From assembly GCA_030248215.1 (NCBI GenBank), contig JASANG010000611.1, forward strand, positions 124,001 to 188,000: DNA of 64,000 bases. The letters run 5' to 3'. The stretch is from Enoplolaimus lenunculus. Its lineage: Eukaryota. Below, one piece after another: positions 1-63,364 of this stretch; within the stretch, counting starts at the first letter, position 1; the number at the start of each line of letters is the position of its first letter. A program made the position numbers and the translations under genes. The notes under the pieces were generated by a model. That model worked only from the letters and a program-made list of their open reading frames with translations, made no database searches and was not told where the DNA came from.

Positions 1-1337
1 TAACACTCCGTAACCGAATAACAGAGTTGTGCCATCTGCAGACGCAAGCTAAAATATCAGTAGTGCCCAGTCTTTTTCGGGTCTCTCACAGCAGTATTCT
101 TGGAAATTTAGTAACTTGTGTTGTAGTAGTGTATATAATGATTTGATTTTTTTGTTTGTATTTTTGTGTATGGTTTAAACCTAGTGAAGCATTTTCGTTA
201 TATTATAGAAACTGCAAATACCATTAATAGAAACTAATATCTGTTCCGGAACCATCAAGTTGATATTCGTGTTTACATGCTAGTTTTGTTGCCGACCGAT
301 GTGATTCATAAGCTTAAAATATGCTGTGAAATTTTGAAAAAGTGTAATTACAATTTATTGCGTCAATACAGCTGTACATATTACGTTTTGTGAGATGTAT
401 TTCTTCCCAACATCGCGTTGTTTTAGGGTTTTTAATATTTAGCATCAAATCAAAACTTACATTTCAAAAACCTCCCCTCTCACAGTATAGGCCCGTAGCC
501 AACTCACCTTGTTATGGGGGTGGCTAAATAGTGTTCACGAGGGGCATACAAGGGGGGCAGAGATGCGTAATATGAACCCAATAGGAATTTAACAAAAAAG
601 TGACCTATCCTATAGATCTCCACCAATGGGGGCAGCATTAAAAGTAAATAAATTATTTTCATTAAATTTCTAGGAGGTCCATATTCCGAACCTCCGCCTA
701 CAAGGGGTTTGGATGATTTACAAGTACGGTTGAAAATTTTCTCTGAGGGCCACCCAAACACGGAAACCCTACCACGCACATATATATCCACATTAGGTGA
801 AGAACGGCGCAGCTTGTGATTGCATGCTGAACTCGAGCGCAAAAGGTCCAAGGTTCGTTTTTGGAGAGGTTCTAAACTTTCGGCAACATTTCTGGAAGGA
901 ATTGACTCCATCGTGCAGTTCCAACACATCCATTCTATCACTTAGCCAGAACCGTTGATTCATCGTTAAAAAGCACACACTTCTTTCAGCACCTAATGAT
1001 GAACGAAAATGACTCCTGTTGATTCAGATTCAACAAACGAACAGCGAAATCTTTCCGCCACAATTATTCGGGTCACTACAGTAGAATTGAAACACTGGCT
1101 CAGTGATATTCACAATAAGCAACCGAGACGATTAAAATGTTTTTAGTATTTATTTAAGAGGTTCATAAATAAATTTTTAAATTCTTTTTAATATTTAAAC
1201 ACAAAGTTTAGTTTTGATTTTTATTCAAAAAATATCCACTGCCAAAGCATCGAGATGTCCGTGGCCGTAATTAGTTGGAACATCATAGTTTAGCACAATG
1301 TAAATACTTCCACATTGTAATTGTTTAACCAAACAAT

Positions 1338-4300: not shown

Positions 4301-7300
4301 AGCCCAAATTGGATCGGTGCGTGGTGGCTAGGATTTATTATCTGCGCTGTTCTGTATTTAGCAGCAGGAGTGCCTTTATTTTGCTTTCCAAGACAAATTC
4401 AGCCAAAAGCAACCGCTACTCGTGTCCAGTTTAACATCGGCGACTTGGAATATCCCGAAGAACAAATCTCCCTCGGTCAACTACCGCAACAACCTGAGAC
4501 AGAAATCAAAACACAGTCAGAAAATGGTCACAGATCATGCTTATCGTTTTGTAAAACTATAAAAGGTTAGTTCAACATTTTTGCACTGATGGATATTTTG
4601 ACAATTTCGAGGTAGTAAAGCGAGGTTTCACTAAAATGCACACTTAGTATATTTAAAAAATAGCCCATGTTAAGTATAAAGGAATGCCCACTCGCTAACG
4701 CTAAAGCTAAGCTAGGCCTGTAACCAGCTCACCATGCTCGGGAAAAAATTTTAAGGAGGGGATTCGGGGAAATTTTACATTAAGGCCCCCTTTGGCTAAT
4801 GGCCTAGAAAGTGTTATCATCACCTTGAAGAATAAGCTATAAAGACGGTTGAACCCTTACAATCTTACAAAGTCATTCGCACGGGGGAGGTTTTGAGAAA
4901 CGTCCGCCTAAAATTTGGCTGGTGCCCCCAAATAGACTCGGTCTAGAATTAAAAACAATCTGAATTACAGTTGTCCCAAAATTACTTGGTACCCACTAAA
5001 TATAACTTTCTGCGGACGCCCCTGCAATCTAAGCCCGTATTCGCAAATGTGTGTAGCACCAATCACCAGTTGGTTATAGGTCTTGTAACTTTGAAACCAG
5101 CGCGTGGTGAGGGTCGAAACTCAGCACATTGTTCGCATTTGATTTGCCCTACTTCTGTACCAATTTTGAGAGTTGCAATTGAAGGTATTCGCCAGTTTGA
5201 AAACCTATCGCTAACTGATGATAGAGGTGCTATATGCATTTGAGAATATGGGCTCTGATGATAATTTTAGGACTACCTCGTGCAATATGGGATCTCATTC
5301 GCAACCCGGTCTATACAAGTATGCTGTTTGGTTGGATATTTGGTGCGTATCTGGTCGGTGGATTCGGCACTTATTTGCCTAAATATATCGAACATCAGTT
5401 TCACGTGACCGCGTCAATTGCTGACTTGTGTGCAGGTAGCGTTTTCGTTGTTTTGCTGTTTATTAAGTACTTTCTGTATGACGTGATTTTCTATTCATTA
5501 ATTGTGTTTTCGGTTATAAAGGAAAATCTAAATCTCCGTCCCAAAGAACATTTTGCTATGGAATTAAACAAGATTTTTCAGCGAAGAACAGGGCGATTCT
5601 GAGATACGGGATTCGCTTTTGCATGGAAAGTCTTGAATTTAACCGGTGATTGTCTTCTTTCGTTATTTCAAAATAAATATTTGCCACTGCCCGCACATTT
5701 TTTACAAATGTTTTAGACCACGAAGTATGAATATGCCAGTGTTGATTACAATTTAATAACCATAAATAATATGTCGCTATTTGTCGGATCTACGAAAATT
5801 CGTCGCCAGGATACCCTATAGACTGACAGAATCCAAATCTAAGCCTTAGTCCAAACAGAATCCTGCCCAAGCCTAAAGCTTAATGCTACGCCTAATGATA
5901 GGCGACAACTTGTCGAATCGCCAGATTTTGGATTACAAGTTGTCCAGCAACGAATTCTCGTTGTAGTCTGTCTGTCATTGTAGAAATGACTTGTGGACTG
6001 AATTTTCAGGAGTCATATCTATTGGCTCCGTGGCAACAAGTACTGCTGCTGGAGGATTCATTCTTACGCGATTCAATGTTGGCCCTCGACGAGCCACACT
6101 GTACCTGATTATTAGCTGGAGTGGCATTGTAGTAACTTACCTTATTGGGATGGCAATTGGATGCGATGAACCGCATTTAGTTGGTGATCATATACGAAGC
6201 AACTTGTACGTTTGCTTGTGAATAAATTTGCAAATTTAATTAATGTTGAGTTGGCTGAAAATTTCACATTTAGTGTATATACACCAAGAAACCTTGAATG
6301 CCCCTCCTGAAAAATTTTCAGCCCCTCCTAGCAATGTGAGCTGGCTGCGGGCCTGCTTATAAATCGAGTAGAGTAGCTCGAAAACACAACACGCGCTGGT
6401 TAATTTTTTAACTGGGGGAATACGCGTAAAGTTGTAGTATACTTTTGTCTAAGTCATCCATCGTTGACTCTTGGTGTAACTATGAACTGTTATTATCGTA
6501 TCAGTAATTCCTACAATTTCTGCTACCGTTCAGCGTTATACTCTTGTTGTGCGACCTATTATAGATGCCTGATTTTAGACAAACTTTGGTTCTCTAAATA
6601 TTTTACATAAGACAGTTTGAAAATACTAAACAAAGCAATATTTAATGCTAAAAGCAGCAAAATTTGCCAACCAAGTTTACTTTTGACTCTGATGCATATT
6701 TTGTGCCGTTTTATTGTAGCTGGAATTTTACTCAAGAATGCAATCAAGATTGCCGTTGCGGTTCAGTGCGTCAATTTGAACCAGTTTGCAACGTTGACAA
6801 AGTTTATTTTTCGCCGTGTCATGCTGGATGCGAGTTCGATTTTGAAATCAATCAGGTTAACGATAGTTATTGATGTACGAAGTTGTCACATGTTAGTTAT
6901 ACGGGCTCGGATCCGTAGCCAAGACGGAGGGAATGGTGGCTTTCGGTTTATTAAAACATAAGTCTGTTTGGCGATTTTCATTTGCCCATCAACAACAAAA
7001 ACCAAACTTGCGTTTGCCTTCTTGTTCGCTTCGCTCGTCAAGCGTTTTCCACTATGTGGCATCTTGCATTATAAATTTTATAATTCGCCTCTGTACATTA
7101 TTTATTTTGTTAACCACATTATCTATTTTGTGTAATTTTATGCTATTATTATTGTTTCGCTGCTGTATTTTGTCATTTTATTTCAAATGCTTTTAGTGGT
7201 CAAATTGTGCATGTGCAAACAATTCAGCAGTAACCGAAGGATTTTGTCCGAGTCCATGCATTACTATGCCAATTTATGTTACTGTAATGTTCGTTGGACT

Positions 7301-14973: not shown

Positions 14974-16779
14974 TATATCCAGATACCGCACATAATTTCG
15001 AAGTTTGCCAGTCAATGCTCGATGTGATACTACTATTATAGTTCCAATAACTAGTCTGTGTAGTAATGCTGCAAAAACCCAAGCTACGATTAACAGAGTG
15101 GGAAGCGGGCAATGATTTTTTTAACCGACACGTGCTTTACCAACGAAAACAATAACTTTTTACCCGTGGGTATACCTTCGCAAAAAAAGATCTGCCCACG
15201 ACTCCCCTTTTACCTGCGCTTGAAGTTAAACCAGTATTTTAAAGATCGCTGGTGCTTCGCGCTTTAATGAAATTTTGCGATATAGCTTCATTGAATTTTA
15301 CAAATGAAATTTTTAGTAGATATATCAAAATTTCAACCCCAAAATTAAAACACGGGCAGCACCCGGCCAGAAATAAAACAGACAATAGCGTAGGTTTTTC
15401 ACCTTAAAACTTAAAAAACTGTGAATTTTTTGCGCGCATGATAAAAACCTTTGCCCGCGGTATACCCGCGCCTCAAATTTTTTACCCGACCCGCGTTTAC
15501 TCGCCGATAAGCGCGGAGACCCGCGAGAACCCGCGGGTAATGCCCCACTGTGACGATGAAAATGTTATTAGACACCTAATTTGACTCAACATCTCTTTAC
15601 TTCCAAAATTATTTTATTGCAATTAAGCCCTTAAATCGATCTCCAACAGGAATAAAATTTCAGGAAGGGCATACAATAGTTTTTGATGACTTACAAGCAA
15701 AATTGAAATTTTTCTGGGGGATACAATGTTTCCGGGGGGCTCATCACCATGGTTCCTCTCTAGCTTCAAGCCCATACTTTGATTTGCTGTCTTGTTTTCC
15801 AGTAAGGAAAATCGAGATTTAAAATTCAGTCTGAAAGAATCCGTGGTGGCGGTGGTGGCCAGAAACTAAACATAAAAATAGTTCGAACATCTATTTTTAC
15901 GCCGTAGTGTCAACGATCACCATTTAAACTATTTTACCTGATTTCTGAACCATTACTAGACAATTATTTATTTTGTTACAAATTTTTATTGCAAAATTGC
16001 TAGAAACGATCGAAAAACAATTATTGAAACTAAAGTCAACACATCCAACTGAATAAGATGCTATAAAGTGAAACAATTACTAGTAAATTGATTGCACTTG
16101 AATTCTTTCTATTCAACAAAATTATCTTTAAACCTTCAACACGTATTAAATTAGCTATTTCTAAAGTTCTAACTTTTAAATTTGATTATGGAATTTTGGG
16201 TTATGATCGAACATTGGATTTCGGGGTATTAGGATTTGGTCGACTGTACGATTTTGGAATTTCCCATGTGATCCACCCGAACCCATTATTTCTTGCCCAG
16301 ACTCAGTGCCGTCTAACGAGACCACGCTTACATCTTAACAATATAATTATCTTAAAAGCATGAGCGCGTATTAAATGAGGCTATTTATAAGCTCTATTTT
16401 TTCAAATTTTAAAGTTTACTGATCTGACTTTGAAACACTCAGGTTCATGAGAGAAACTCAAATTCTTACTGCGACATATCTGAATTACGGTTATAGTGAC
16501 AGGTTTTATATTATGTCTAGGAATTTTTGCAGAAACTCTCAAAGCAAGTCAGCAAGTATCGTGAGAACACGACTGGGACAACGTGAACAGCTGCTTCAAA
16601 ACGTCACAACGCCGTACTACAACTATCCCACAATTGTTACTCATTTTCAAGAGCGAAACTCAGATTTGTACTGAAGTTTGTTCGAATATTTCCATTCGTT
16701 AAAAGGCAGTCAGGCGAACCAGCAATATCACATTTTACTTTAACTATTAATATTTGAATATATACTAAAATTTGCTTCA

Positions 16780-19135
16780 ATGGATGACCATTTGCCTATC
16801 TTGAAAATATCACGATTTTACAATAGTAAGAACTACATTGAAATACGAAGATTTGTTGAAATTATCTGCCGTTTAATATTTGAGCGTAAATATTCAGTTG
16901 AATTCGTTTCGCCTGAAGATAAATCTTTCGGAGCTGTAAACGCCAATGGCACATGGACGGGTATTATGAAAGATCTCATTAATGGAGTTACAAATCTATC
17001 AATGCCATACATGTTTTCTGCAATCGACCGAGTTGAAGCGCTCAAATATACGAAATATCCAATTTATGAGTTACGTGATGCGTTTTTGGTCAACAAAAAT
17101 ATGAAGCAAGAAAACGTAACGTACGTTTCAGATGTTTTTTGTGTTGTTTAAATTATTTGTAGTATCTTTTGACATAAGTTGATTTTAGGCCTAGAACAGC
17201 TAGCCAGTTTGTGCTCATGTATAGATTAGGGGGCTTAACGTCTATCTGCGGGACTGCAATAGAATAAGCTTGAACATTAGACTATTTTTTGTGTAGACTT
17301 AGGCTCAGGCGTAGGTCTAGGTATAAGATTATTTGTACCTTTAGGCTTAGGCTTATGCTTAGGCTTAGGAATACGCGAATACCGTTGGTACGGCTCTGTC
17401 TATGTAATTTTCTCAAGTTTGCAACAAAGTATATAATTTAGAGCTGCATTACCTACACTGATTGTTCAGTGTAGTATATCACTTTATAATCATCTTACCA
17501 CGGACTCACACCAAACGATTTCACAGATAAACGCTTAGTGGAGTATATAAGTTTAGTGCCGGAGCAGGCTAGGGTCGACCCCCAAAATTTCGGGGGTGAG
17601 AGCCCCTTGTCACGATCAAAATATTTTTCAATTTTTTTGTTTAAAATCTTGTTAGGGCAGCTGCCCTTGTTGGGGTGGGCCCCAAAATGGGGCATGGGGG
17701 TGGCAGATTCGGCCCTGCGCAACTTTTTAAATGGCAGGCATTTTTATTCAGCATCATGAGATACCATGCCTACAAGCGAAAACGTAGACCACAATCGCAT
17801 CAAGTTGTACGAATTCTCAGCCAGTTGTATTAGCCAGTCAGGTGCAGTTGCTGTAGAGGCTCGGGGCTCTGACAATTACTACCTTTTCTGTATAAATTGG
17901 CTATATAATTGAATTGCTGGAATGGTATGAACATATACTACAGACAGTAGATGCATTGAAAAGTGGGCCCACTTAAAGATCATTACTGGAAAACGTTTTT
18001 CTGCATGACCTCAATAGAGTAAGCTTAAGCTTTGTACAATTTTTTGTTAAGGTTAAGGCTCTAGCTTAGGAAGGTGTTTATTCTACTTTTGCGGCTCTGT
18101 TCTGTACATTGGTCGAAATAAATAATTTCGCGTACAAATAAGCCAGTAATTCATTGTAGACAAAAAGTAGCCTTAGCTTGAACTAGGTTTTTCGGGCTGG
18201 ATCCGGATTGGTCAACTCAAAGTTGGTGAGATTGTCGCGAATTTCTCAACGAAAAGGATGGCTTGAAATTTTAACCAAAACAGAAACTTATAATTCCGTT
18301 TAATAGGTTCCAGTGGCAGCTACTATTTTCATGGCAAATATGGTTGATAACAATTTCACTGTTGTTGTTTTTGGACGTTTTCTGTCTTCAAATTCGGTCA
18401 AAAAACCAAAAATGTGTCAACACGTGTTATTTTATTTATGTTCTTGTGTTTCAAATGTTGGTTTCGTCTGTAATTTTGAACAAATTTGTACCGTTCATCA
18501 CAGTACCGTTTAATGACGTTTTTGAAGCGGCCATTCAAGTTAAATATGGTAAATATCATATGATTTGCCCAAAAAGTTACTGCTCGGGTGGATATCGCGA
18601 TTTTCTTACTAGAGTGTTTAAGTCTTACTTTAATTGTACAGTGCCAGAACGAGTTCCAAACAACAACAATCAAAAATGCTTACAAATCAATGGTTTACGT
18701 TCGATTATTTCACACTTAAATGTTAATACCTCGGCATTTTTTTACTTACCCAGTGATGATGCCAATGTCTTGAGATATAAACATAACCAACTTAGCGTCA
18801 TTGAAGCAGAAGTTTCGCTGCGTCAAATGACAGTTGCGTATATTGCACTGCACAACTCGAATATACAGCTGGAAAACGAATACAACAGTGGATTAATGGC
18901 AGTGGATGCATATGGATTTGTTATATACTGGAAACGAAAATTGTCGCTTATGACAACACAAAAAGATCGTCAAACTATTGGTAATCCGCGTATAATTATT
19001 ACATCTGATCAACTAAAATCATTATTTTATGTTCTACTAGCAACACTATGCGTTTCCTGCACAATGCTACCGTTTGAATTGGTATACTTCAATGATTTCA
19101 ACGTCTACCAAGAGATACATTGGATTTTGGCGTAG
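16780..19135 (+). CDS. Divergent ionotropic receptor (iGluR/IR superfamily)-like gene, probable exons 16780-17120 and 18307-19135; 5' end unresolved, possibly a pseudogene
   Basis: S1-like YSVEFVSPEDKSFGAVNANGTWTGIMKDLING..DRVEALKYT. The splice AC|GTACGT..TTTAATAG|G joins it in frame to M1-like LFSWQIWLITISLLLF, then FITVPFNDVFE and a C-terminal TM LKSLFYVLLATLCVSCTMLPFEL. No signal peptide was found. Confidence 0.7.
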
Positions 19136-24291: not shown

Positions 24292-27200
24292 ATGGGTAAC
24301 ATAGTTTTGTTTTTAACGTTTTGTGTCGGACTAGGTTTCGCATTCCAGTACAAGCATCATGACACTCAAGCGGTAGTTGAATTGCTCGAGGAAATTAACC
24401 GAAAATGTCCGACGATCACGAAGCTTTATTCAGTGGGCAATAGTGTAGAAAATCGGCCGCTTCCTGTTATTCAGTTTGCGATTCCTGCTGAAAATGGCGA
24501 CATTCGCCACGACATTGGTAAGGTTAACAATTGTGTACGTCTTTATCGTTGAATAAACAGGTGTTTCGAGGTATTGGATAGGGATGTTCGTATTCGTGGT
24601 GTCAGTCTAGGAAGGAACCGGGACATCATACCTTTCAACTAAGCAGCTGGAAAAGCGGGCTAGAGGGTGGATCGAACTCTCAGCCTATGGATCCTTAAGC
24701 GAGCACTCTACCACTGCGCCACGTAGCCCGCCTGTCCAACTGCATTTTTCGTCGGCTATATTTGTCGACCGTATGCTGCCAGCTAGCATACATACAGTGC
24801 ACTGCACTATATTGCATGTGCACATAACGGACAAGCATGTCTCACATGCTTACATGCCCTTATTTTCAACAAGGTCGTCCCTTGACCGTCCATCCTATTT
24901 TCGACTGGATACCGGGTTCATAGCGCGGCAGTTTGCCATTGCGCTCACGGCGTAGCCCCCATGTCAGTCAAAGTTGTAAGTGAGGGATATCAGACCTTTC
25001 TACTAAGCAGCTGGAAAAGCGGGCTAGAGGGTGGATCGAACTCTCAGCCTATGGATCCTTAAGCGAGCACTCTACCACTGCGCTACGTAGCCCGCCTGTC
25101 CAACTGCATTTTTCGTCGACTATTTTTGTCGACCGTATGCTGCCAGCTAGCATACATACAGTGCACTGCACTATATTGCATGTGCACATAACGGACAAGC
25201 ATGTCTCACGTGCTTACACGTGGTATTGTATTTACTGCAACGTGGTGGTTATTACGTAAGTAATGTGTCAGGCTAGTGTGAGTAGCAGGCTGCTTTCGGT
25301 ACCAAAAATACCGGAGCCGGAAGTATCTGGCTGGAACCGGGTATCGGAACCGATAACTTTAATATGATGCTGTAATTGGCCTGGTTTGCGAACGGGAGAC
25401 CCGGGTTCTATCCGGACTGATCCAATATTTCATCTTGCGTTTTCTCAAACTTAAGTTGGGGATAGGTAGGGCTGTGTGTCGTATTGGTGCACGATCGGTA
25501 GTCAGTTATGGCGGCTGGCTACGCTGACCAAAAGATGTACTTTGGTGTTCTTGCTTCGGCAGATTCGATGTGGGCGGCAGTAGATCTTCGTTTCTCAGAC
25601 ACTGTTGGAAAAATGGGATCTGCACGACCCCCGTTCGAAGCTTTGCCCAAAGTTAAGGACCACGCCAGGAATCGAATCTCGGCTTTCTTGCGCTCGAGCC
25701 AAGCATGCTACCACTACACCATGTGGCCATTGTAACAGCTTCATATAGCGATATATGTGCACCAGGGTGCAAGCGGATATCAGGCTACGGCTCCAGCTCC
25801 GGCAAGAAATCGACATCCGGCTCCGGTATTCTAACTTGCCGAGTATGATTTTTAAAAAACATTAAACAATTTATACCATCATTCGTATTTATGCCAAGTA
25901 CCATTGGACAGACTGGCTTACTTTTACATATTTTTTCTGTCACACATGTAATTTAGATTTTTTGAATGTGATAGGTTACAATAACGCTGAAAAAATCAGC
26001 AGCACATTTCTATTATTCGTAAGGGTAAGCCTAAATTCAACGTCAAAATAAGACTATAAATAAGTAAGCAAAAATAATAGGTTGTTTTCGAGCCAGGGAT
26101 GGGCGGAAACCGAAAATAAAGTCTAGGTCTCGGTCAACTTTCGGTTATCACCGAAAAACATAAAATTTTCAAAAGAAATTATTTCTAAAGTCGGTTCCAA
26201 ACCACCGAGACTCAAGAAACCAAGACGTGCCAAATACCGATTATCGAGACTTGCTGAGATCGTGGCCCTGACTCCCATCCCTTGGGCTCCCCTAAATGTA
26301 ACATAAGCCATGTGAAGATTGCAACTGAACGCAACGCTACAAAAACATAGAATAGTATAATGTGGGTCGTTCTTAAAACGTTAAAAATGTATCAGTATGA
26401 GATGTTAAACTTTCTCACGTAAATACTTTAGGTACCTTAACGCGGAAGGCAGAATTGTACGGCACGTTCTAATGTCTGAATGCAATCTGGTATTAAATTT
26501 GAATTCATTATCCGGCTCCGTCAGTTTTTGGTTTCCGGTTTAACCCTGGTGCACATGGATTAAAATGTTTTTGCTTTGCATACGCTTATCTTGCACATAT
26601 ACCTCCATCCTTTTTCACAGGCGGTCGTCCCGCACATTGAATCCAACTCCCCGAATCCATGGACTTGCTGTTTGCACTGCCAAGTCTCGGTGGGACCTCC
26701 ATGTTGGAACAACCCGGTCTGCACGACCCCTGTTCGAAGTTTTCCCCAAAGTTCAGGACCACACCGAGATCGAACCATGGCCTTCTTGCGCTCGAGCCAA
26801 GCATGCTACCACCAGACCATGGGGTAATTGCAGCAACTTCATATACCGTTTTATGTGCAGTGCACATGTATTATAATCTTTTTGCTTTGCATACACTTAT
26901 CGTGTAATGCACATTCAGTGCCATAGAAGGTAAGGTGCATATGCGAAGCCAGAACAAACATAGCAGGGTGCCACCTAACTTACAATTTAGCTGCTTTCGA
27001 ATTCGAAACATACTGATTTTGCTGAATCTGATTCCGAATCCGGACCAGGGCGTCTAAAAATCACGTCATATAGATACGCGTGAACGTTGCAAGCCGAATG
27101 TTAAACAGGTAGTAAAAACATGTCAATTTTGAAATATATATATTTACAAACTAGGGATTTGCCGATAGCATAATTTTTGCCCATGCCGATACCGATGTCG

Positions 27201-30200
27201 ATTCTTATTTTAAAAATATGCCGATGCCGCTGCTAATTCCAAATTTACTATATACATTATGCATAAAGAACAGATAGGATACTACATTACGTACATCATT
27301 ATGCGAAGACTTAAAGCACAGCCACCATAAACGACTAAAATTATATGAGAACTGTTCATTATGATTATTTTTTCAAATACAAACTCAAGAGAGATAACAT
27401 TCTCTTTTTAGACACACTGGTATGCGCCAACAACTGAAATTGACAGCATTCCCACTGGCCACTGACTATTATGTGCAAAAAGTATCGGCAAAAAATAGGC
27501 ATTTTTTGCTGTGCCGATGTAGGTGCTCAGGAAAACTGCCGATTATTGCCGCTGCCGATTAATCGCCACATCCCTTGGATGAAAAATATTTTTTATTTTG
27601 AACTATGTATTGTCAGTTAGCAAAGTTTACACAGCAGCAGGGGTGGGCGATCTTGGGATTTAGCTGGTATCGGTCTCGATCTTGCTTTTTCCGGTGTAGG
27701 TGGTTTGCAAATCTAGACTAGACCAAAGAGTTGAAAAACCGATAAGCAACCACAAAAATTTCTCTTGGATCGCAGCTTTGGGCTAGAAGTATTTCTGCAT
27801 TTCGCCTTCCAAGACAGACAGCTAACGATTGTGAAGCACAGCTACCTGGTGATACAGCGATTTGAGAAACAGAATGACCCTTTGATTTTATTGTAACAAA
27901 GCTTAAACAGTTGCATTTTAGCGTTTAAAATATTTAAGGCATCGCGTAAAAATTATGGGTCATCCGTATTTATACCGTCTACGCTATGTTACGAAATTCT
28001 CCAGTCTACTGGGTCTGCCCTGGGATCAAGAACGACGCTACAGCTTTGAATGAATAAAGTAAAAAAATTAAGTTTGGCGGCGATTTATTAGTTTAATTGT
28101 ACGAGACGATAATTGAGATCAGATAGAATATATATTCAAAACTTTTGTTAAAAACTTTCCATTTTCGGTAACGGATAAAAATTGACTGTCTCGGTCTTGC
28201 TCTTTTGACCGAGACCGCCCATCCCTGCACTGCAGCAATGTTTTGCAATGTGAATGTGTACATAGACGGTATATTTCTTATTGGTTGGCGGAAGGGTGCA
28301 ACCGGAATTACAATTACCGAAACCGAAACTGGAATTTGAAAAAATTACGGGAGCGGAACCGGAACCGGAAAATGAAAAATACAGGTCACCTAAAAATTCA
28401 TGAAAAACTCATTTTTAAGCTTAGATTTTCAAAATCCACGGAAGCACAGTCTACCTTCGATGGTTTATTTTCGGTGATTGTCCAGGTTTATACACTAGGT
28501 CAAAAAATGTAGTAACCGGAAGGTCAAAAAGGCTGGAAATGGAATTCCAGTTGCACCCTGGTTGGCGGTCGTTTTTTGATTTGCGCTTTTTTATTCTGTT
28601 GAGGTTAGTCACGTGCTGCGCGAAGCGGGGGCTTTTGCAGTAAAGTATGGGTGGGGTTTGCGATTTCGGTTAAAATTAGATTCACAATTAGTTCTGATTC
28701 TGATGACAATTTTGAAATATTGTAACACACGAACTTTTCAGTTTCCATTCTTTTTGAAGCCGTTTTAGAAACGTTTTTCATTAAGCATTCGAGCGGATAG
28801 GTAAATGTTTTTCTGGTACCGTCTATTGTAACGTATGGCCCCGGCACCCTCTAACCCCGATGCCGTGGCCGAGATCCGGCTTCGGGACATCTCTAATTGG
28901 AACCCTGTTATACATGAACGTGCAAAAAGCAGAAACACGAATTTTAAGTAAAAAATTTACTTCCAACAGGATTTAGCTTCTTTCGCCTGGTACTGAGTGA
29001 GAGTTTGTCGCCCTCCACTATCCAGCAGGGGGAAACCCTTTATGGTTTATTGAGGGAAGCGAAACTACGAGCGAAGCTCGGAGTTTTGCGAAGCGGTTTA
29101 TGTTTTGTACTCGGGGGTCGAAAAGTGGATTTTCGTCTGTCTGTTTGTCCCTCTGTCCGTTCGAACAGAGTCTCAGAAAGCGCTGAACCGATTTTGATAA
29201 CCTTTTTTGTTTAAAAGCTTATCCTGGGGTGCTAACTCGCATTGGGAGCTTAAACTTTCAAGCCGTTTATTTCCTACCTGCTAATTTGCATAAGGGTTAA
29301 GCGTAAATTAGGACTTTTTACAGTATTTAACTAATTACCAATCGTACTGGGACTCAGGGTGGCAACAAAGGTTCGGATTCGGATTCAGCAAAAATTTGAG
29401 GTTCGGATTCGGATAACAAAGTTCGGCAATAATATGTTTTTTTCATTTTTAAGCAATAAAATTTTTAAATACCTTGCTATAAAAATCAATATTTTTATTT
29501 CAGGTGAGAAATCTCAGGACTGACGTCGGGTCGAAATATATTAACGTGTTAAAAGTTACGTATACGGCTGGCATTGCGTTTATATTCTAAAACAAATTAT
29601 AGATATATCTGAAATTTGCAACATGCAGGATTCGGATTCGGTTTCGGATTTGGCAAATTAGCACTGGATTCGGATTCGGTCAAATCGTGGATTCGGTTAT
29701 CAATCATGCAAATATGCAAATTAAGTAGTAGCTAACTATTAATTATCGGTTTCGAAGGTTTGTAGACAATTATTTAAATTCCTCGCACCCCAAAACCCTT
29801 TTATTGCTGAAAGATTGCTTGCAACGCTAATTATTAGTGAAATAACATAAAAAGTCACAATTTAGGCTTAACCGATTAAGCAAATATGCAAATTAGTTAT
29901 ATAATAGCTAACTATATATTCATTTATCGGTTCTGGAGATTTACAAAGATTTGATTTAGATTTCTCGCACAAAACCCCTTTAGTACTGAAATTATATTGC
30001 TTGTACCGTAATAATTTGTGAAATATCTTTAAAACTTTCAATTTAGGCTTAACCGATGCAAATTAGCCTGTTATATAGCTAATACACAGCTTAAAATTTT
30101 ATAACACCAATGCGAAGTTAACATCCCATGATGGCCGGCTTTCAAACATTATTAAAATCGGTTCAGCGGTTCCTACTCAATTACCAATGTGAGGTTAAAC

Positions 30201-33200
30201 CCCAGGATGACTGGCTTTCAAACAAAAAAGTTTATTAACATCGGTTCAGCGGTTCTTGATATTCTTTTCGGACGGACGGATATGCACCTTTTCACCCCCG
30301 TGCACAAAATATAAAACGCTTCGCGAATCTGTTTCGCTTCGCTCAATTAGGGTTATAAGCAATCTAATTTCAGTACTAAAGGTTTTTGGGTGTGAGCAAT
30401 CTGAATAAATTGTTCTTCAGCTTACAAAAGTGATATATAATTGAAAACGTAGTTAGCCAATAGCTAATTTGCATATTAGCTTAATTAGTGTTGCCTAAAT
30501 TAGGCTTTTTAAATTATTTCACTGATTAATTAGGGTTACATGTATTCAAATTCAGTACTAAAGGTTTTTGGTGCGAGAAATCTGAATAAATTGTTTACAA
30601 GCCTTCAAACCTGAATTGAATAAAACTTTTCAAATTATTTCACTGCGTATTAGGGTTACTGCAGGGTTTTTGGGTGCGCGCAATTAGAATAAATCCTTTA
30701 TGAACTTTAGACTGATAATTAAATAGTTGGGTAATAGCTAACTTATGTATTAGCTTACAGCTAAGCTTTAATTAGGCGGACCGGTAATCCGTACGTCGAG
30801 GGTTCGAGTCGCACCGAATCTGCAGTAAGCATGTCCGATCTTCGCTCAATAAATGTAGTTCTACTACGACTGGCAATATCATTTTACGTCAATCCTTGTA
30901 AACGCAGACACATCCAGAAAGTTGCAAAATGTAAAAGACTTTGGAAAAACAACCTTGTTTGTTACTTATATTTCAGTAAATACATACAACTGTATATATA
31001 ATCATTTATACACTAATACGTATACGTAAAAACTTAGAATTAAATTTTGTAGGTTTGACTGAGTTGACTGGTGTGTGGATCTTAATTTCAAGGGTTGGCT
31101 GACTTGACTGGTGCATTGTGGATCATTGAAGTTCACAAAATTTGTTGCAGCTGCTTTCTCATTGTCTGATGAAAAATGCAAGTTCTGCATGAAATTTGCA
31201 TCTACAAGTTCTCGCAGCAAAAACTTGAACGTGTGAATAGAGCTTAACCTTTCATTTCAGTAGGATTTCGACAATCTTTTTTGCCACAACGGGAACTGGA
31301 ACAGTAGTTGAACTTTCAATTTATATAAGTAGACTTTCACCCGAATATAAAAATTGTTCACGTGTCTTCTATGTTGCTTAAGTTGAAGCAGGTTTGTAGC
31401 CTCTAAGATTTTTTAGTTTTGCATTAGTGACACGTAACTTTTCCGACAGTAATTGAAGTTTTTATGAGCACATATATATTTTTCACTTATGTTCTGTGTT
31501 CGGCAAATTGAACATCCGGTCGCTTTGTATCTTGTGATGTGTGATGTACTTTATGTGACATTATGTATATTTTAAAGTACCGTTATGTACTAGTGTTTAA
31601 GACAAATTTGAAGCCATTTCAGTGAAATCAGAGGTTCTCGCTGTGGTCGTGATCTTCAGGATGTGCATCCCTGCTAAAAACATGCGGATTTTAGATTTTA
31701 TATAATACCGACCGGGATTGTCGGATTGCCTGAATCTTCGATTCTGTGATCTTTATAAAGAAATATACATCTACACGCGTATATAGTTTTCATGTAACCA
31801 GCTATACGTACTTACCTATGCCATATACGTACGTACGTGTATTCGACCGTTGTTGCATGTCATGTTTAGAGCCAGGCCCGTAGTCAGCTCATCGTGCTGG
31901 GGACTAAAAAATTTTCAGGAGGGGCATATTATGGTTTTCGTTGACTTACCAGCAGGTTGAGAGTTTTGTAGGGGCCGAGCCTCCCCTGCTTCCCTTGGCT
32001 ACGGGCTCGGTAAGAGCTCAGCATAGCATGTTGTGTATATCCAAAACTAGTGTCTTACTGAATGCCGAACTTAATGGAAATGTGTGTGCTAAGTAGCGTG
32101 TGTCGTGTAGGGTTTTCTGCTCGTTGCTGTGTTGTGACTGAGGCTTTTGATAGAATGGATGGCTTTGGGTTAGTTTCATATATGCACGTATATATAGACA
32201 TGCGTGTTGTTTGTTGGGTTATGCGTAAGGCTTGTCTCAGTCGGTTTGGTTAGCCAACAAAGACTGTTAGAAAATGTATTGTTTGTGTGTAAAGGCCTTT
32301 GAGCTTGCCTTGTCGATTCAAGGGTACATTATACTATTATTTTTATGAATGCGAATTTTTTTATTACGTATTAGTAAATGGTTGGTAATTGTAGTCATGT
32401 GATACATACTTAAGTAGTACGAGGTGTATTCAAACGAGTGGCACGTGGGTGGAAGAACATTTTCAATTTTATTAAATAGTGTATTTGTATAGGCCTTATA
32501 AGCACACATTACATTCACACTTAGTAAAGTTCTGTGTCTGCGTATTTGTCGGTTGTGTTGTGACGTTCGAGATGTTTTTGAAGGTACATTATGGGCTAGT
32601 GTACTGTATGATACTTTGCTAAAACAAACTTTATAGTTTAAATTTAAATGTTAAAGCGTTGTATATGTATATTAGATATATGTTCATATTTACGAATTGT
32701 GGCCTGTTTTTTATAAATGGTGTGTGGCAGTGATGGCATTTATATTTTGTAATGCCAGCAATATTATATATTTATTTTCTGTATGGGTAAATTATTGAAA
32801 AGTTATTTATTTGCAGCTAAATGTGTGTATTTTATGTATGTATTTACGTATGTAACCTTTGTATCTGATCAGCGTCTTGATCATTCATGAAAGTTATTTA
32901 AATGTTGATTTTCAAACAGACAATTACTATTCGAACAAGAATTCAAAATTTATTGGAAATATCAGATTTAATATGTAATGTACCAGAATGAAACTAATGA
33001 TACATGCTTATAACAGCGAACGCTAAAACCGCTTGAGAGCTATAGAATTGCGCTTCATTTTCGGAACCACGTAATACGTAGGTAGTGTTAATTGGTGAAC
33101 ATTGATATATGTCGGTCGATTAGTTCAAAATGTGCACAAGTTTTTGGTTCAGAGTGCTGTTCTTATTTATTTGTTGACCTAATGTGTTAAGTTTTATTTA

Positions 33201-36200
33201 CTAGAGACTTATAATTGGTTTTAATATAGTTTTTTTGTAGCCGTGTGAGCATAACGTACATTATTTTTGTTTCAGGTCGTCCAGAATTTAAATATGTTGG
33301 CAATATGCATGGTAACGAGGTTGTCGGTCGCGAAATGTTGTTAAAATTAGCTGACTATTTGTGCGATCGATACCAACATGGTGACGCGGAAGTGCGCAAA
33401 CTAGTCAATCTGACGTCAATTCATATCATGCCCACAATGAATCCGGACGGATACGAAATGGCGTACCGAATGGTATGTATATATGTCAGATGTGAATGAA
33501 ATAATTTATTTCATTTTGGGTTAATTTGGAAAATTTTAACCAATTGCTTTTCTGTAAAAACCTCTAAATTTTGAAAAACAAAAACCCTGTTGGAATTTGT
33601 TGAACTGTTCCTGTATTTTACTGCAAAATTATTGAGTCCATTTTGATTGTCACTAAATAATACGTATATGTTTCATAGAGCAGCGCTGTTTGGTTCCTAC
33701 TGTCGTGTGGGTGTCGAAATTGTTCGTAGTATGGTTAACTTTGTTTAAGTGGATTGATTCAGCGAACTTACGTGTATATATACTTTCCGCAAAATCCTCA
33801 ATGTACTTGTTCACTTTTTTACTGATTCATGAGTGTATAGGTTGGTTTGAATTTTTTCAGGGTGGTCAAGGTGGCTGGACGCTTGGTCGCGAAAATGCGC
33901 ATAACGTTGACTTAAATCGCGATTTTCCGGATTTGGACAGCTTATTGTTTTATCTCGAGTCGAATGGTGTACCGCGCTATGACCATTTGATGAGCGTATT
34001 TCACGACGAAAGCCGGGTAAGCTTGTGAATGGTGCCAGGTAAGCTTGTGAATGGTGATGTTGATCGATAATGCGGTGCACAATAAGCATTTGAAACCGGT
34101 TGAGGCTTGCCGTAGCATATTTTTACTGGAAAACAATATTTATAATATTAGCCGTATTTCAGTTTAGTCGACTAGATAAAAATTATCGTTTTACAGTTTG
34201 TTATCTATTCTGTGATTTACAAAATTTGATTTTTTAAGTAGCTAGAGTTATGCTGAACATAACGATAATAACGATCACTGGTGATATCGTACTTTTTAGT
34301 GGGAAGCAGTTTTTAAATATGTTTTTTCAAGTAGATACCACTGAATTCTGAGCTGAAATCGGTTCAGTTGTCTAATAAACATTTCGGGGCACCCACGCCG
34401 ACCGCTCCTTATAGCATTACACGGTTTGTTCAAACTTGCTTTTTTTACAGTTATCTCAGTAATACTAATATTATTGTTTATTGTTATAGCATGAACCGGA
34501 AACACGAGCGGTCGGCAGGTGGATTCTGCAAAGTCCGTTTGTGTTGAGTGCAAACTTGCACGAAGGTGATTTAGTCGCAAATTACCCGTTTGACTTGAGC
34601 AAAATCGAAGGCAAAAGCGTTTATTCTAAGTCACCAGATGATAGCACATTTAGGTGAGCGCATAATAAAATACACAATATTATCTTTTGCACCTGATTTT
34701 GTTAACATTTTAGCAGTTCGCTTAACGTTCTAGCTTCAGAAAAAAGTTGCATAAAAACTTTGGAACATATTTTACATTTTTGGAGAGCTTCGTTCACTGG
34801 ACGTTTTTTATTTAACTAAGTTTGCTAATTGTCGGATACAGATCGCTAACCACCATGCTTTGGCAAAAACATTTGCAGAATTGCGTAAAAATTGCACTGA
34901 ACTAGAATTGGAAAATTTTCATATTGTACAACATGCAGAGAATTGTTCAAAAACGTTATTGGAAAACTGTATCCCTAATGTCTGTTTGATTTAGATCTTT
35001 GGCGCTCGCTTGCTTGAAATGATACGTTTTTGGATCCGGTTTGCAAACCATGGGATTGCAAAAATTGTAGACCTATTTATAAAGCAGTGTATTAATAGTG
35101 TTTTATATCTTCTGAAAACTTTGCAAAATGCAAGAAATGCTGGAAATGTATAAAAATGATCATTTTAAACTTTGTCCAAGCAGAGTGGTGTGTATAATTT
35201 AGACACTTGGCGCTTGCTTACTCAACTGAACACACTACAATGGCTGATCCGGCGCGTAAACCATGCGATATGGCGGGCGATGATTATTTTGCGAAACATG
35301 GGGGAATCACTAATGGGGCGCGATGGTATTCGGTTGAAGGAGGTTGGTTTATTTAATGTGTCATGATGTTTAAAACCTGGCATTGACAGTAAGGGAACTA
35401 GTGTATTTATACACACAGTGATCTAGAAAAAATCGTGTCATTAATTGATATAAATCGAATGGTTACAAACGGATCTTTATAAAACATGAAGATTCATACA
35501 GGGGCACACGTTTTTGTCAAATATTGCACATGGAACCTGGGCTATCTTTGTATTCGCTACGCATGCTTATTATTTAGGAGGGTTGTCTTATTGTATTGAT
35601 TTTGTAGCCAATGTTACTTTTAGGGGCGTAACAACAGATTAAGCGTATTCCTAAGCCAAAGCCTAAGGGTTGCAATAATGTGTTCCTACGCCTAAGCCCA
35701 AGCCTAAGCAAAAAATGTAATTTAGAGTCTGAACCCACTTTGCGGAAAATTTTGTTCTAATTTGATTTAAAACGGAGACAGCTTGCAAGATGATCAAGGT
35801 GATTGTAATTGGTCACGGTATAATAAGGTATTACTTTTTGGTTTAGGAATGCAGGATTTTAACTACTTGGCGAGCAATTGTTTTGAAATAACTCTTGAAT
35901 TAAGCTGTCAGAAATTCCCGCCGGCTGAGCTCCTTGAAAACTATTGGAATGATAACAAAAACGCGCTACTTAACTTTATCTGGCAGGTAAGTATTGTTTA
36001 AATTTGAACCGTTTTATAAATTCAACATACGTGGAAAGGTATTTTTCAAAATGTATACACATTACACAGAACATTTTGATTGTAATTTTTAATGCAGCAT
36101 ATGCATACATAGCGAGTGTCAACAGTCTTTCAAGCCGAACAAATTTATTAATTATATGGATTGTGCAGTGTTTTAAATTTTTTTCGTTTCGACAGAAACG

Positions 36201-39485: not shown

Positions 39486-42400
39486 TGCCCCGTTTTCCCA
39501 TTAGCCCGAAACAAACCTGTTTCATTTTCCCACCGAAAAATTGCAGTTGTCCCGTTTTCACATTTGCCCGAATCAGGTCTGTCTTATTGTCCCGCTTTCC
39601 CAGCGAAACAAACCTTTTCCGTTTTCCCAGTGAAAAATTGCAGCTGTCCGTTTTCCCATTTGCCCGAGACAGGCTTTTTCCATTGTCCAGATTTCCCAGC
39701 GAAAAGTTTCCGTTTTCCCATTTGCCGGAAGCAAACCTGTCCCGTTCTCAGCAAAAAATTTCAGCTGTCCCGTTTTCCCAGTTTTCCCAAACAGACCTGT
39801 CCCACTGTCCCGTTTCCCTAGCGAAATTTTGCAGCTGTTTCGTTTTGCTATTTGCCCGAAACAGGCCTTTCTCATTTTCCGGTCAATGTTACCCTAAAGG
39901 CCGTCCATTTTCCCGGGACAGAAATGTACCAGGAGTACCCGTCCCATTTTCCCGGGACAGCAATCTACCAGGAGTACATACAAAAAATATAATTGGGACA
40001 ACGGGACGGATGATACAGTGGGACAGATGAGACAGTTGGGACAGTTTGGACAGATGGGCCGTTGAGACAAATGGAACAGATTGGACAGTTGGTACACTTA
40101 GGACAGATGGGGCAGTTGGGACACATGGGACAGTTGGGACAGGTGGAACAGTCGGGACTAGGACAGTGGGACATCTGGGACCGTGGGTCAGTAGGACAGC
40201 TGGACAGTCCTACTGTCCCATTGTCCCACTGTCCCGCTATCCTACTGTCCCGCTGTCCTACTGTCCTACTGTCCCGCTGTCCTAGTGTCCTACTGTCCCG
40301 CTGTCCTGCTGTTCCACTGTCCCGCTGTCCTACTGTCCCACTGTCCTGCTGTTCCTCTGCCCTACTGTTCCGTTGTCCCGCTGTCCTACTGTACCGCTGT
40401 CCTACTGTCCTGCGGTCCCACTGTCCCGCAGTCCTACTGTCCCGCTGTCCTGCTATCCCTGCCCCGCTGTCTTACTGACCCACTGTCCCGCTGTCCTACT
40501 GTCCCACTGTCCCGCTGTCCTACTGTCTCACTGTCCCACCGTCCCGCTGTCCTATTGTCACGCTGTCCTACTGTCCTGCTGTCCTACTGTCCCGCTGTCC
40601 TACTGTCCTGCTGTTCCACTGTGTCCCGTTTTCCTAGCGAAATTTTGCAGCTGTCTCGTTTTGCTATTTGCCCGAAACAGGCCTTTCTCATTTTCCGGCC
40701 AATGTTACCCTAAAAAGGCCGTCCATTTTCCCGGGACAGAAATGTACCAGGAGTACCCGTCCCATTTTCCCCGGACAGCAATCTACCAGGAGTACATACA
40801 AAAAATATAATTGGGACAGCGGGACAGATGATACAGTGGGACAGATGAGACAGTTGGGACAGATGGGGCAGTTGGGACACATGGGACAGTCGGGACAGTT
40901 GGGACAGATGGAACAGTCGGGACTCGGACAGTGGGACAGCTGGGACAGTGGGCCAGTAGGACAGCAGGACAGTCCTACTGTCCCACTGACCCATTGTCCC
41001 ACTGTCCCGCTATCCTACTGTCCTGCTGTCCCACTGTCCTACTGTCCCGCTGTCCCGCTGTCCTGCTGTTCCACTCTCCCGCTGTCCTATTGTCCCACTG
41101 TCCTACTGTCCCACTGTCCCGCTGTCCTACTGTCCCACTGTCCTGCTGTCCCTCTGTCCTACTGTTCCGCTGTCCCGCTGTGCTACTGTACCGCTGTCCT
41201 ACTGTCCCGCTGTCCTACTGTCCCACTGTCCTACTGTCTCACTGTCCCACCGTCCCGCTGCCCTACTGTCACGCCGTCCTACTGTCCTGCTGTCCTACTG
41301 TCCCGCTGTCCTACTGTCCCGCTGTCCTACTGTCCCGCCGCCCTACTGTCCCGCTGTCCTGCTGTTCCACTGTCCCACTGTCCTACTGTCCCACTATCAC
41401 ACTGTCCCGCTGTCCCACTGTCCCGCTGTCCCGTTTTCCTAGCGAAATTTTGCAGCTGTCTCGTTTTACTATTTGCCCGAAACAGGCCTTTCTCATTTTC
41501 CGGCCAATGTTACCCTAAAGGCCGTCCATTTTCCCGGGACAGAAATGTACCAGGAGTACCCGTCCCATTTTCCCCGGACAGCAATCTACCAGGAGTACAT
41601 ACAAAAAATATAATTGGGACAGCGGGACAGATGATACAGTGGGACAGATGAGACAGTTGGGACAGATGGGACAGTTTGGACAGATGGGACAGTTTGGACA
41701 GATGGGACGTTGAGACAAAGGGAACAGATTGGACAGTTGGTACACTTAGGACAGATGGGGCAGTTGGGACACATGGGACAGTCGGGACAGTTGGGACAGA
41801 TGGAACAGTCGGGACTCGGACAGTGGGACAGCTGGGACAGTGGGCCAGTAGGACAGCAGGACAGTCCTACTGTCCCACTGACCCATTGTCCCACTGTCCC
41901 GCTATCCTACTGTCCTGCTGTCCCACTGTCCTACTGTCCCGCTGTCCTGCTGTTCCACTCTCCCGCTGTCCTATTGTCCCACTGTCCTACTGTCCCACTG
42001 TCCCGCTGTCCTACTGTCCCACTGTCCTGCTGTCCCTCTGTCCTACTGTTCCGCTGTCCCGCTGTGCTACTGTACCGCTGTCCTACTGTCCCGCTGTCCT
42101 ACTGTCCCACTGTCCTACTGTCTCACTGTCCCACCGTCCCGCTGCCCTACTGTCACGCCGTCCTACTGTCCTGCTGTCCTACTGTCCCGCTGTCCTACTG
42201 TCCCGCTGTCCTACTGTCCCGCTGCCCTACTGTCCCGCTGTCCTGCTGTCCCGCTGTCCTGCTGTTCCACTGTCCCACTGTCCTACTGTCCCACTATCTC
42301 ACTGTCCCGCTGTCCCACTGTCCCGCTGTCCCGTTTTCCTAGCGAAATTTTGCAGCTGTCTCGTTTTACTATTTGCCCGAAACAGGCCTTTCTCATTTTC

Positions 42401-43415
42401 CGGCCAATGTTACCCTAAAGGCCGTCCATTTTCCCGGGACAGAAATGTACCAGGAGTACCCGTCCCATTTTCCCCGGACAGCAATCTACCAGGAGTACAT
42501 ACAAAAAATATAATTGGGACAGCGGGACAGATGATACAGTGGGACAGATGAGACAGTTGGGACAGATGAGACAGTTTGGACAGATGGGACAATTTGGACA
42601 GATGGGACGTTGAGACAAATGGAACAGATTGGACAGTTGGTACACTTAGGACAGATGGGCAGTTGGGACACATGGGACAGTCGGGACAGTTGGGACAGTG
42701 GGTCAGTAGGACAGCGGGACAGTCCTACTGTCCCACTGACCCATTGTCCCACTGTCCCGCTATCCTACTGACCTGCTGTCCCACTGTCCTACTGTCCCGC
42801 TGTCCTACTGTCCCGCTGTCCTGCTGTTCCACTCTCCCGCTGTCCTATTGTCCCACTGTCCGACTGTCCCACTGTCCTACTGTCCCACTGTCCTGCTGTC
42901 CCTCTGTCCTACTGTTCCGCTGTCTGTCCTACTGTCCTGCTATCCCACTGTCCCGGGGTCCTACTGTCCCGCTGTCCTGCTATCCCACTGCTCCGCTGTC
43001 CTACTGTCCTACTGTTCCACTGTCCTACTGTCCCGCTGTCCCGCTGTCCCACTGTCCCACTGTCCCGCTGACTTACTGTCACGCTGTCCTACTGTCTTGC
43101 TGTCCCACTGTCCCGCTGTCCTACTGTCCCGCTGTCCTACTGTCCCGCTGTCCTACTGTCCCGCTGTCCTACTATCCCGTTGTCCTACTGTCCCGCTGTC
43201 CTGCTGTTCCACTGTCCCGCTGTCCTACTGTCCCACTGTCCTACTGTCTCACTGTCCCACTGTCCCGCTGTCCTACTGTCCCCACTGCCCGCTGTCCTAC
43301 TGTCCCGCTGTCCTACTGTCCCGCTGTCCTGCTGTTCCACTGTCCCGCTGTCCTACTGTCCCGCAGTCCTACTGTCCTGTCCCGCTGTCCGACATCCCAC
43401 TGTCCCGCTGTCCCA
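39486..43415. repeat. Higher-order tandem array: 4 units (periods about 816, 805, 900 bp), each a conserved ~190-bp block plus (GGGACAG)-type tract plus inverted (CTGTCC)-type minisatellite
   Basis: TAGCGAAATTTTGCAGCTG recurs at 39819, 40635, 41440 and 42340; strand polarity flips at GGACAGTCCTACTGTCC in each unit. Confidence 0.92.
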
Positions 43416-43885
43416 GTTAGGTTGTGTCGGTGGAAAAGGTATTCGATGATATTGTGAGCTCTGGACAATATTGGAGGGCTGTGCCTCCCCAATCTGAACA
43501 TTAGGGGCAAGTGCCTCTGCACCACATTTCCGAAGCCTATGGAGGGCAGGTTGGCAACACTGAGCACTCCCTAGCACACAAACTTCCAACTACTTAAAAA
43601 GCTGAGCTCAATCTCTTGTCTGGAAATCTCTGTACTAGCTCGCACATTTTTACAATCACAGAAATAAACAACGCGATTTATGAATATTTTGCAGCAATAC
43701 GCAATTTCAACTGCAATTTGCGCACACTTTACTGAGCAGCGCAGTCGCACCTGCTTGCGTTGTGTTATTTCAGCTATTAATGTGTTTGTTACGAAGTTTG
43801 TTGCTTCAACTGTTTTGCGTTTGTTTTGATTAGAAAATTTTACGACTAAAACTATAACACATAAACTTTAGGGAGTAAAATTTTC

Positions 43886-44094: not shown

Positions 44095-44132
44095 AAATTT
44101 TTAAAAAAAACATACACTGAAAATGGAATTAA

Positions 44133-44395
44133 CCCCTTCTCACATTCTGTTGCCTATAGGCGACTCAGCGCAGTGTATATACGTTAAATAATATATATCG
44201 CACCGTGTTTCACAATTGCAACAGGTATACATAGTACTAAATCACCACAAGACGTGAGAGCCCCCTCGGGCTCGAACGTCAAGCTCCTGTAGCTGCGTGG
44301 TGATCGTATACGCCTCCCACTCCAGTCACTGGAGTTCGAATCTTAGCATAAAAATAGGTTTCAATGGAAATAGAAAATATTCATGTGAGAAAGGG
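44133..44395 (+). mobile_element. piggyBac-type MITE containing a tRNA-like segment
   Basis: TTAA-CCCCTTCTCACAT ... ATGTGAGAAAGGG-TTAA; internal TAGCTGCGTGGT...GAGTTCGAATC. Same family as 62450-63364, in the opposite orientation. Confidence 0.75.
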
Positions 44396-54880: not shown

Positions 54881-55026
54881 CTTGCGTTCAAGCAAAACCC
54901 TGCGAATCAGGATTAGGTTCCCGACTATAAATACAAAAACTTTCAATTGCGAATAGCAGAGACACGTATAACATTAATTTTGGCTTCATTTAACTATTTT
55001 CTCTTTGAAGCAGTCGGATATTGGAA

Positions 55027-61898: not shown

Positions 61899-62449
61899 TA
61901 AGGTCACTTTTTTTGAAAATGCTGCGTGGTTGACGCTAAAGGGTTTTAAATATTAGTAACTTGTAATCCGTAGTTGCGCACATGTGTAACTCTCCTATTA
62001 TATATAATGGTTTTAGCTTTATGTTTAAGAGCATTTGTTTTTTAAGCAGGTTTTGCCTAAGTTTTGAAGCTTAAGTGACAACTCAAACAACCAAATCATC
62101 ATTTTAATTTATACCGGGTTTATTGGTTCGGTGCTGCATGCGTTCTTAATAAAGGAAAGACAGAACTCGGCATTGCACTCTGTAGTGGAAAATACACTTC
62201 GCAACTTGAGCATAGCTAAGGACAACAGATAAATATGCTATCAATGTCTAATAGAACAACACAAAACATCTAACCAATAATGTTTACTAAGAATATCGAA
62301 ACAACAGTTTTATATATGTCTTTGCAAACTTCTATTAATTTGCATAGTGTGACTTTGCTGGAACGCTGCCCAAAATACGTATGTGGGGCGTTCCACCTTT
62401 TTATATAGATATGAATCGCTAACGCAGTTCTGTCTGCAATCGAACTTAA

Positions 62450-63364
62450 TCCTTTCTCACATGAATATTTTCTATTTCCCCTGAGACCAACTTTTATGCT
62501 AGGATTCGAACTCCAGTGACTGGAGCGGGAGGCATATACCATCACCACTCAGCTATAGGAGCTTGATGCTCGAGCCCGAGGGGGCTTCTCACGTCTTGTG
62601 GTGATTTAGTACTAAGTATACGTGTTGCAATTGTTAAACCACGGTGCGATATCTACTATTTAACGTATATACACTGCGCTGAGTTACTTACAGGCAACTC
62701 AATGTGAGAAGGAATTATAGATAGTAAACTGAAAATTTTTCGCTTTACCCTTTCTCACATGAATATTTTCTATTTCCCCTGATACCTACTTTTATGCTAG
62801 GATTCGAACTCCAGTGACTGGAGCGGGAGGCATATACCATCACTACTCAGCTATAGGAGCTTGATGCTCGAGCCGGAGGGGGCTCTCCCTGACGCTCGAG
62901 CCCGAGGGGGCTCTCACGTCTTGTGGTGATTTAGTACTAAGTATACGTGTTGCAATTGTTAAACCACGGTGCGATATATACTATTTAACGTATATATACT
63001 GCGCTGAGTTGCTTACAGGCAACTCAATGTGAGAAGGGGTGATAGATAGTAAACTGAAAATTTTTCGCTTAACCCTTTCTCACATGAATATTTTCTATTT
63101 CCCCTGAGACCTACTTTTATGCTAGGATTCGAACTCCAGTGACTGGAGCGGGAGGCATATACCATCACCACTCAGCTATAGGAGCTTGATGCTCGAGCCC
63201 GAGGGGGCTCTCCTTGACGCTCGAGCCCGAGGGAGCTCTCACGTCTTGTGGTGATTTAGTGTTATGTATACGTGTTGAAATTGTTAAACCACGGTGCGAT
63301 ATATACTATTTAACGTATATACACTGCGCTGAGTTGCCTACAGGCAACTCAATGTGAGAAGGGG
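62450..63364 (-). mobile_element. Tandem trimer of the tRNA-like-containing piggyBac-type MITE
   Basis: Units at about 62450-62713, 62748-63039 and 63073-63364, separated by the same ~33-bp spacer (ATAGATAGTAAACTGAAAATTTTTCGCTT); TTAA at both outer ends. Confidence 0.8.

Follow-up and report, generated by a model that had tools for sequence, protein, structure and literature searches.

The element described here lies in the window, that is, the whole 64,000-nt stretch of DNA that was analyzed, where it sits antisense within an intron of a putative carboxypeptidase E-like gene. For one carboxypeptidase E exon, three homologues were found among 11 candidates; a single one of them is named, and it comes from the nematode Syphacia muris, its match continuing through a stretch (26/47) that is covered less far by the solved carboxypeptidases N, D and M. 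The other host genes found in the window encode an OATP transporter (1329-5602), an ionotropic-receptor-like protein (16744-19135), a single-frame LRR membrane protein (49033-50157) and a divergent Kv channel (55009-59355), the last of which is at most 39% identical to anything found, pointing to a poorly sampled lineage; searches with the LRR protein and the Kv channel gave no information on the placement of the host. The window also contains a 3.6-kb GC-rich nested satellite (39797-43460), which consists of short units, includes inverted segments and a repeat some 800-900 bp long, and has long open frames that are repeat artefacts, as well as three tandem copies of an approximately 300-bp unit (62445-63368), a relative of which lies inverted at a distance of 18 kb (44129-44399).

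Architecture of the element and its neighbors

On the minus strand, the 5' LTR is followed by the primer-binding site (PBS), a 104-bp interior that ends in a purine tract and a 3' LTR that is split by a MITE. The original prediction of two repeats of about 205 bp around a 104-bp interior once 25763-26548 is removed agrees with the lengths measured, which are 212 bp for the 5' LTR, 203 bp for the 3' LTR (one copy of the 6-bp duplication being subtracted) and 104 bp for the interior, so that the element without the MITE has 212 + 104 + 203 = 519 bp. The TRIM layout of LTR, PBS, purine tract and LTR is likewise borne out by comparison of the LTRs and by the junctions; in its details, the PBS begins directly after the 5' LTR as had been claimed, while the polypurine tract (PPT) ends 4 nt before the 3' LTR and is not flush with it. 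No open reading frame of at least 120 codons overlaps the element, and no PBS follows the third LTR copy of the window.

Table 1. Coordinates of the element, its parts and the surrounding intron in the window
Feature	Position	Strand	Basis
Carboxypeptidase E-like gene, 8.8-kb intron holding the element antisense	24518..33275	+	inferred
5' LTR, TG...CA, 212 bp	26702..26913	-	LTR comparison
tRNA-like module of 5' LTR, 71 nt	26756..26826	-	panel comparison, fold
Interior, non-coding, 104 bp, PBS and PPT included	26598..26701	-	multicopy in the organism's contigs
Primer-binding site	26685..26701	-	17/17 complementary to tRNA-Gln(CTG) 3' end + CCA
Polypurine tract, 14/15 purines	26602..26616	-	sequence
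3' LTR piece upstream of insertion	26549..26597	-	LTR comparison
MITE-like insertion, 786 bp	25763..26548	.	imperfect CAGGG terminal inverted repeats, 6-bp direct duplication
3' LTR piece downstream of insertion	25603..25762	-	LTR comparison
tRNA-like module of 3' LTR, 72 nt	25657..25728	-	Rfam, ARAGORN
Third LTR of the same kind, heavily decayed, start uncertain	813..926	+	LTR comparison within window

The insertion in the 3' LTR, which judging by its ends may be a hAT-type MITE, is itself multicopy in the organism's contigs. An 8-bp TSD was sought for it and is absent, with 4 of the 8 positions mismatched. Other LTR copies are free of the MITE: at least 10 contigs have a loose end at 25762, and one contig connects 25737 with 26860 over 19 letters. 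At the site that corresponds exactly to that of the MITE, the 5' LTR (26850-26866) carries five extra bases where the other copies have a single motif, which might be the footprint of an excision or have arisen through slippage. More CAGGG-ended MITE-like termini are found at 28293-28560, 26964, 53065 and 54344, and this family is abundant in the window.

The neighboring element of family 1 (24600-25218, minus strand) possesses a 5-bp TSD and a T4 run after its module, and its two LTRs are identical at 228 of 235 positions (97%), diverging near their 3' ends. When compared with the element under study, the module is shared (1 of 1000 shuffles scores as well) but the whole LTR is not (296 of 1000), while the similarity of the interiors (32 of 1000) is owing to similar purine tracts. 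That the two are separate families, as had been predicted, is supported by this dissimilarity of the LTRs outside the module. The first seven bases of the family 1 module (25086-25092, minus strand) recur in its own PBS (24940-24960) at 7/7, which is what an acceptor stem common to module and primer would produce. A second, diverged copy of family 1 at 58120-58706 (plus strand) shows a likeness of 72-79%, contains two parts that resemble LTRs and has a variant of the PBS start.

Primer-binding site and tRNA-like module

The PBS has no second match in the 64,000-nt window at up to three mismatches (0.05 expected). It is complementary over 17 nt to a tRNA-Gln(CTG) plus CCA, the tRNAs used being non-host. 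The motif that retrieved the gene for this tRNA (locus L001) included the PBS complement; the perfect match is therefore partly circular, and the independent part is the Gln(CTG) call by ARAGORN. A D-arm motif, which is independent of the PBS, yielded two Gln genes, and these match the PBS at 16/18 and 15/18. Among 77 non-host panel tRNAs, the five best matches are all Gln, and the best non-Gln tRNA reaches 14/18 with 3 contiguous. A scan of viral contigs for the PBS gave no match.

Each LTR contains a tRNA-like module in the sense strand of the element. The module of the 3' LTR is a match to the Rfam tRNA family RF00005 with 35.4 bits, the only above-threshold Rfam match in the window, and is assigned by ARAGORN to tRNA-Ser(cga), the long variable arm being absent, whereas that of the 5' LTR is called by neither the Rfam search nor ARAGORN. 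The two modules have 59 of 72 positions in common and differ at 13. In this copy, B-box G53 of the 3'-LTR module is replaced by A; in the 5'-LTR module, A-box A14 is changed and the T loop is one base short. Mismatches are found in the acceptor, anticodon and T stems of both modules. With a CGA anticodon that is not accompanied by a long variable arm and with mismatched stems in both copies, the module lacks the properties of a functional tRNA gene. It nevertheless clears the thresholds of Rfam and ARAGORN and would inflate the tRNA-Ser annotation of this genome.

Thus, a PBS complementary to tRNA-Gln and a tRNA-like module in the LTRs, both part of the original prediction, are supported by the panel matches, the Rfam score and the ARAGORN call, respectively. 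The further claim that the module is Gln-like is contradicted: over the whole module, Gln ranks only 5th (3' LTR) and 8th (5' LTR) among the 22 isotypes of a panel of 200 non-host sequences, and the Gln resemblances described at the 5' and 3' sides of the module were drawn from different LTRs. The panel comprises 200 unique tRNAs (222 calls minus duplicates and genes longer than 95 nt), of which 192 are usable in register, and it stems from Gln, Pro and Arg motif scans, these isotypes contributing 13, 22 and 60 of the 200 sequences, respectively. Against this panel, the 3'-LTR module scores 34.5 for Pro, 29.2 for Glu, 29.0 for Gly, 27.5 for Arg and 25.8 for Gln, and seven other isotypes outscore Gln over the whole 5'-LTR module. 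In a comparison with 42 animal-type sequences, the top-scoring Gln came 5th and 7th, and Glu was narrowly first. The arm of the 3'-LTR module matches Arg(ACG) at 11/14 and the best Gln at 9/14.

Several sources of the module were considered and rejected. A tRNA-Pro origin has the best score, but the family 1 module is also Pro-best and the animal-type sequences favor Glu; an Arg origin would account solely for the 3'-LTR arm; and capture by primer read-through would, by reasoning, yield antisense tRNA sequence, whereas the module is sense. A scan of viral contigs and genome contigs with an animal-type Arg motif returned nothing. Clusters of animal-type tRNA genes were observed in short contigs of bacterial genome bins (L069-L080), where they are probably host contamination. 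As Arg, Pro and Gln are over-represented in the panel and host genes are missing from it, no parent isotype is named for the module, which we infer to be a promoter relic and neither a working tRNA nor a primer.

A different role for the module has been weighed, in which it is derived from the primer tRNA-Gln or imitates it and its arm is put to use, either because a processed, CCA-tailed module primes or because the arm covers the PBS to regulate it; we regard this as very improbable. Between positions 60-73 of the 5'-LTR module and the PBS, 10 WC and 2 GU pairs form in register over 14 positions, and at least 10 WC pairs are reached by 2 of the 179 non-Gln panel tRNAs. The duplex energy of this arm (-22.4 kcal/mol) is also better than that of every non-Gln tRNA among 79 (best -21.3 kcal/mol), and the predicted fold of the RNA from module to PBS contains the arm-PBS helix. 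That fold, however, is not better than those of shuffles (z -0.92), the best genuine Gln tRNAs pair far better (about -32 kcal/mol), and CCA is not encoded, the adjoining base being one that would mismatch. The 3'-LTR arm forms 7 WC and 3 GU pairs (-13.8 kcal/mol), and 7 WC pairs are reached by 83 of the 179 non-Gln tRNAs. The arms of other copies in the contigs, among the joints listed, are one unrelated-looking and one of the 3'-LTR type. The low rank of Gln over the whole module argues against primer mimicry as well, as does the account of Helenus, in which Kojima found no complementarity between module and PBS (Kojima, 2024; PMC10886601). It is very unlikely, too, that the 5'-LTR arm and the 7/7 recurrence in family 1 are two instances of a lineage of nematode tRNA-bearing TRIMs with a primer-matching module, serving as a self-supplied primer or for masking of the PBS. 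A self-encoded primer has reportedly been described for a Cer element of C. elegans.

Repetition of the family and state of this copy

The contig data come from three runs of one study with at most two samples, possibly including the source sample, and were compared at 80% likeness. Summed contig depth, which is not copy number, ranges from 22 to 177 in the left-flank bins, from 2,929 to 7,018 in the interior bins and from 45,508 to 142,959 in the best module bin. The module, interior and MITE are all at high depth in these public contigs, which show the family to be highly repetitive. Multicopy sequence extends over the length of the interior, where depth runs into the thousands of units and, among the contigs listed, 5-15 contigs cover each position. 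Given that the module has approximately 10-20 times the depth of the interior, most module-bearing LTRs appear to be solo or to be associated with other interiors. At least three contigs connect an LTR with the PBS end (25726 to 26684), the letters between not being seen, and other copies share the terminal motif, as loose ends at 25619 show (among the joints listed, 15 of 221). At the B-box position, G accounts for 25,796 of the 26,448 depth of run X1 (best 40 of 409 variant rows), and this copy has A.

For the long piece, the LTRs of this copy agree in 131 of the 160 columns compared (15 transitions, 13 transversions and 1 gap; about 82%), and for the short piece they are 88.9% identical across 45 nt; an uninterrupted 30-nt identity between the two LTRs is confined to the tRNA module (P = 0.037, post hoc). 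No TSD of 4-6 bp was found at the ends of the element in the one copy tested, with matches of only 0/4, 2/5 and 0/6. With LTRs only 82-89% alike and no TSD, the copy is either old or a hybrid of two copies. As it has no TSD, an intact PBS beside an LTR identity of 82% and a 30-nt run confined to the module, we lean towards a recombinant of two subfamily copies, which seems somewhat likelier than one old insertion. Because a box is damaged in each module and the MITE has been inserted, this copy is probably dead.

These data also bear on two other explanations of the locus. The element might have arisen by internal deletion from an autonomous LTR retrotransposon, the LTRs of which happened to carry a tRNA module, and not be a separately amplified TRIM. 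The excess of module depth over interior depth and the missing TSD would both suit such a derivative, but the interior is repeated along its length, which fits amplification of the short form, and in Helenus the solo LTRs also outnumber the interiors (Table S3; Kojima, 2024; PMC10886601), so that a deletion derivative is very unlikely. Scarcely credible is the notion that two SINE-like or solo repeats merely happen to lie close together on either side of a tRNA-Gln fragment, which would accommodate the low LTR identity and the lack of a TSD but is largely refuted by the geometry of the junctions, where the TGG of the PBS starts exactly at the CA end of one repeat and a purine tract stands before the TG start of the other, while the terminal motif recurs at the ends of other copies and the repeats carry neither poly-A nor a SINE tail.

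Relation to Helenus and other TRIMs

The locus is very probably one decayed copy, broken up by a MITE, of a Helenus-type TRIM that is multicopy, has tRNA modules in its LTRs, a Gln PBS and a PPT and would be transcribed by Pol III and copied by a helper. The full LTR-PBS-PPT-LTR layout and the target-site flanks were read directly at this one copy. By analogy with Cassandra and Helenus, we propose that Pol III would start at the module of the 5' LTR, the likely promoter, and that the transcript would cover U5, PBS, interior, PPT and U3 and extend into the module of the 3' LTR. The Gag-Pol of a helper LTR retrotransposon would then package the RNA, host tRNA-Gln would prime the minus strand and the PPT the plus strand, and the integrase of the helper would insert the copy. 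On the element strand, the 5' LTR plus interior (316 nt) contain no run of four or more T and four runs of four or more A, which lends slight support to Pol III transcription; the T4 and T5 runs of the 3' LTR count against Pol III read-through.

Helenus (TRIMp3) comprises TRIMs with tRNA-derived sequence in their LTRs (Kojima, 2024; PMC10886601). Judged by its sequence, the element fits Helenus by the published definition, not by homology to a published family. Like Helenus, it is a short, non-coding LTR element with an A/B-box tRNA module in each LTR, and its 519 bp fall within the Helenus size range of 311-1263 bp (PMC10886601). It also has a PBS after the 5' LTR, as judged against non-host tRNAs, and a PPT before the 3' LTR. 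Further likenesses are the presence of several families side by side in one genome, the excess of LTRs over interiors and the interspersed multicopy nature of the family, seen here from contig depth and from the third LTR in the window. The isotype signature is non-functional in both, here as a CGA anticodon without a long variable arm; a mismatch of isotype is reported for most Helenus modules (PMC10886601).

The differences concern the host, primer, TSD and terminator. Helenus is listed from six animal phyla, and Nematoda appears neither in Table 1 nor in Table S1 of that work (PMC10886601), whereas the host here is probably a nematode. The primers given for animal Helenus are Lys, Leu, Trp, Arg, His, Ile, Pro, Glu and Ser (PMC10886601), and the putative tRNA-Gln primer of this element is outside these. 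The term "Gln" is absent from the whole supplement, and the PBS start occurs four times in its Data S1, always in LTRs and never in an internal portion (PMC10886601). The TSD of animal Helenus is 4 bp, with two animal families listed as TSD not determined (PMC10886601), whereas this copy has none and family 1 has one of 5 bp. While Helenus LTRs of bivalves, brachiopods and nemerteans, as given in that work, have a T4 after the module, none follows the 5'-LTR module here.

Similarities with other known systems are more limited. Cassandra and Ajax, as described by Kojima (PMC10886601), are TRIMs that also have a small-RNA-derived Pol III promoter in the LTR, but their module is derived from 5S rRNA and not from tRNA. 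Among the TRIMs with Pol III promoters, Pol III transcription is stated there to have been shown for Cassandra only (PMC10886601). The non-autonomous LTR element cqUNK_45 of Culex quinquefasciatus is listed with a Gln PBS (PMC3286476) and so provides an invertebrate precedent for Gln priming, but it is 3.2 kb long with internal tandem repeats, and its listing mentions no tRNA module. tRNA-derived SINEs (SINE2) share a tRNA head with A and B boxes and are a proposed source of the Helenus module; they are, however, without LTRs, PBS and PPT and are mobilized by LINE machinery. No report of a nematode tRNA-bearing TRIM was found in open PMC papers and bioRxiv; one further paper, as far as its relevant passage goes, merely cites Helenus (PMC13570524). 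The tRNA-bearing TRIM design has already been published as Helenus, and what is new here is confined to the likely nematode host and the Gln primer.

If the host is a nematode, Helenus-type elements reach a seventh animal phylum, with a primer tRNA that is not listed for Helenus, and the 5-bp TSD of family 1 points to a helper unlike that of other animal Helenus. A nematode host would also support the repeated, independent origin of Pol III-driven TRIMs. The two families found in one genome provide material with which Pol III transcription of Helenus can be tested.
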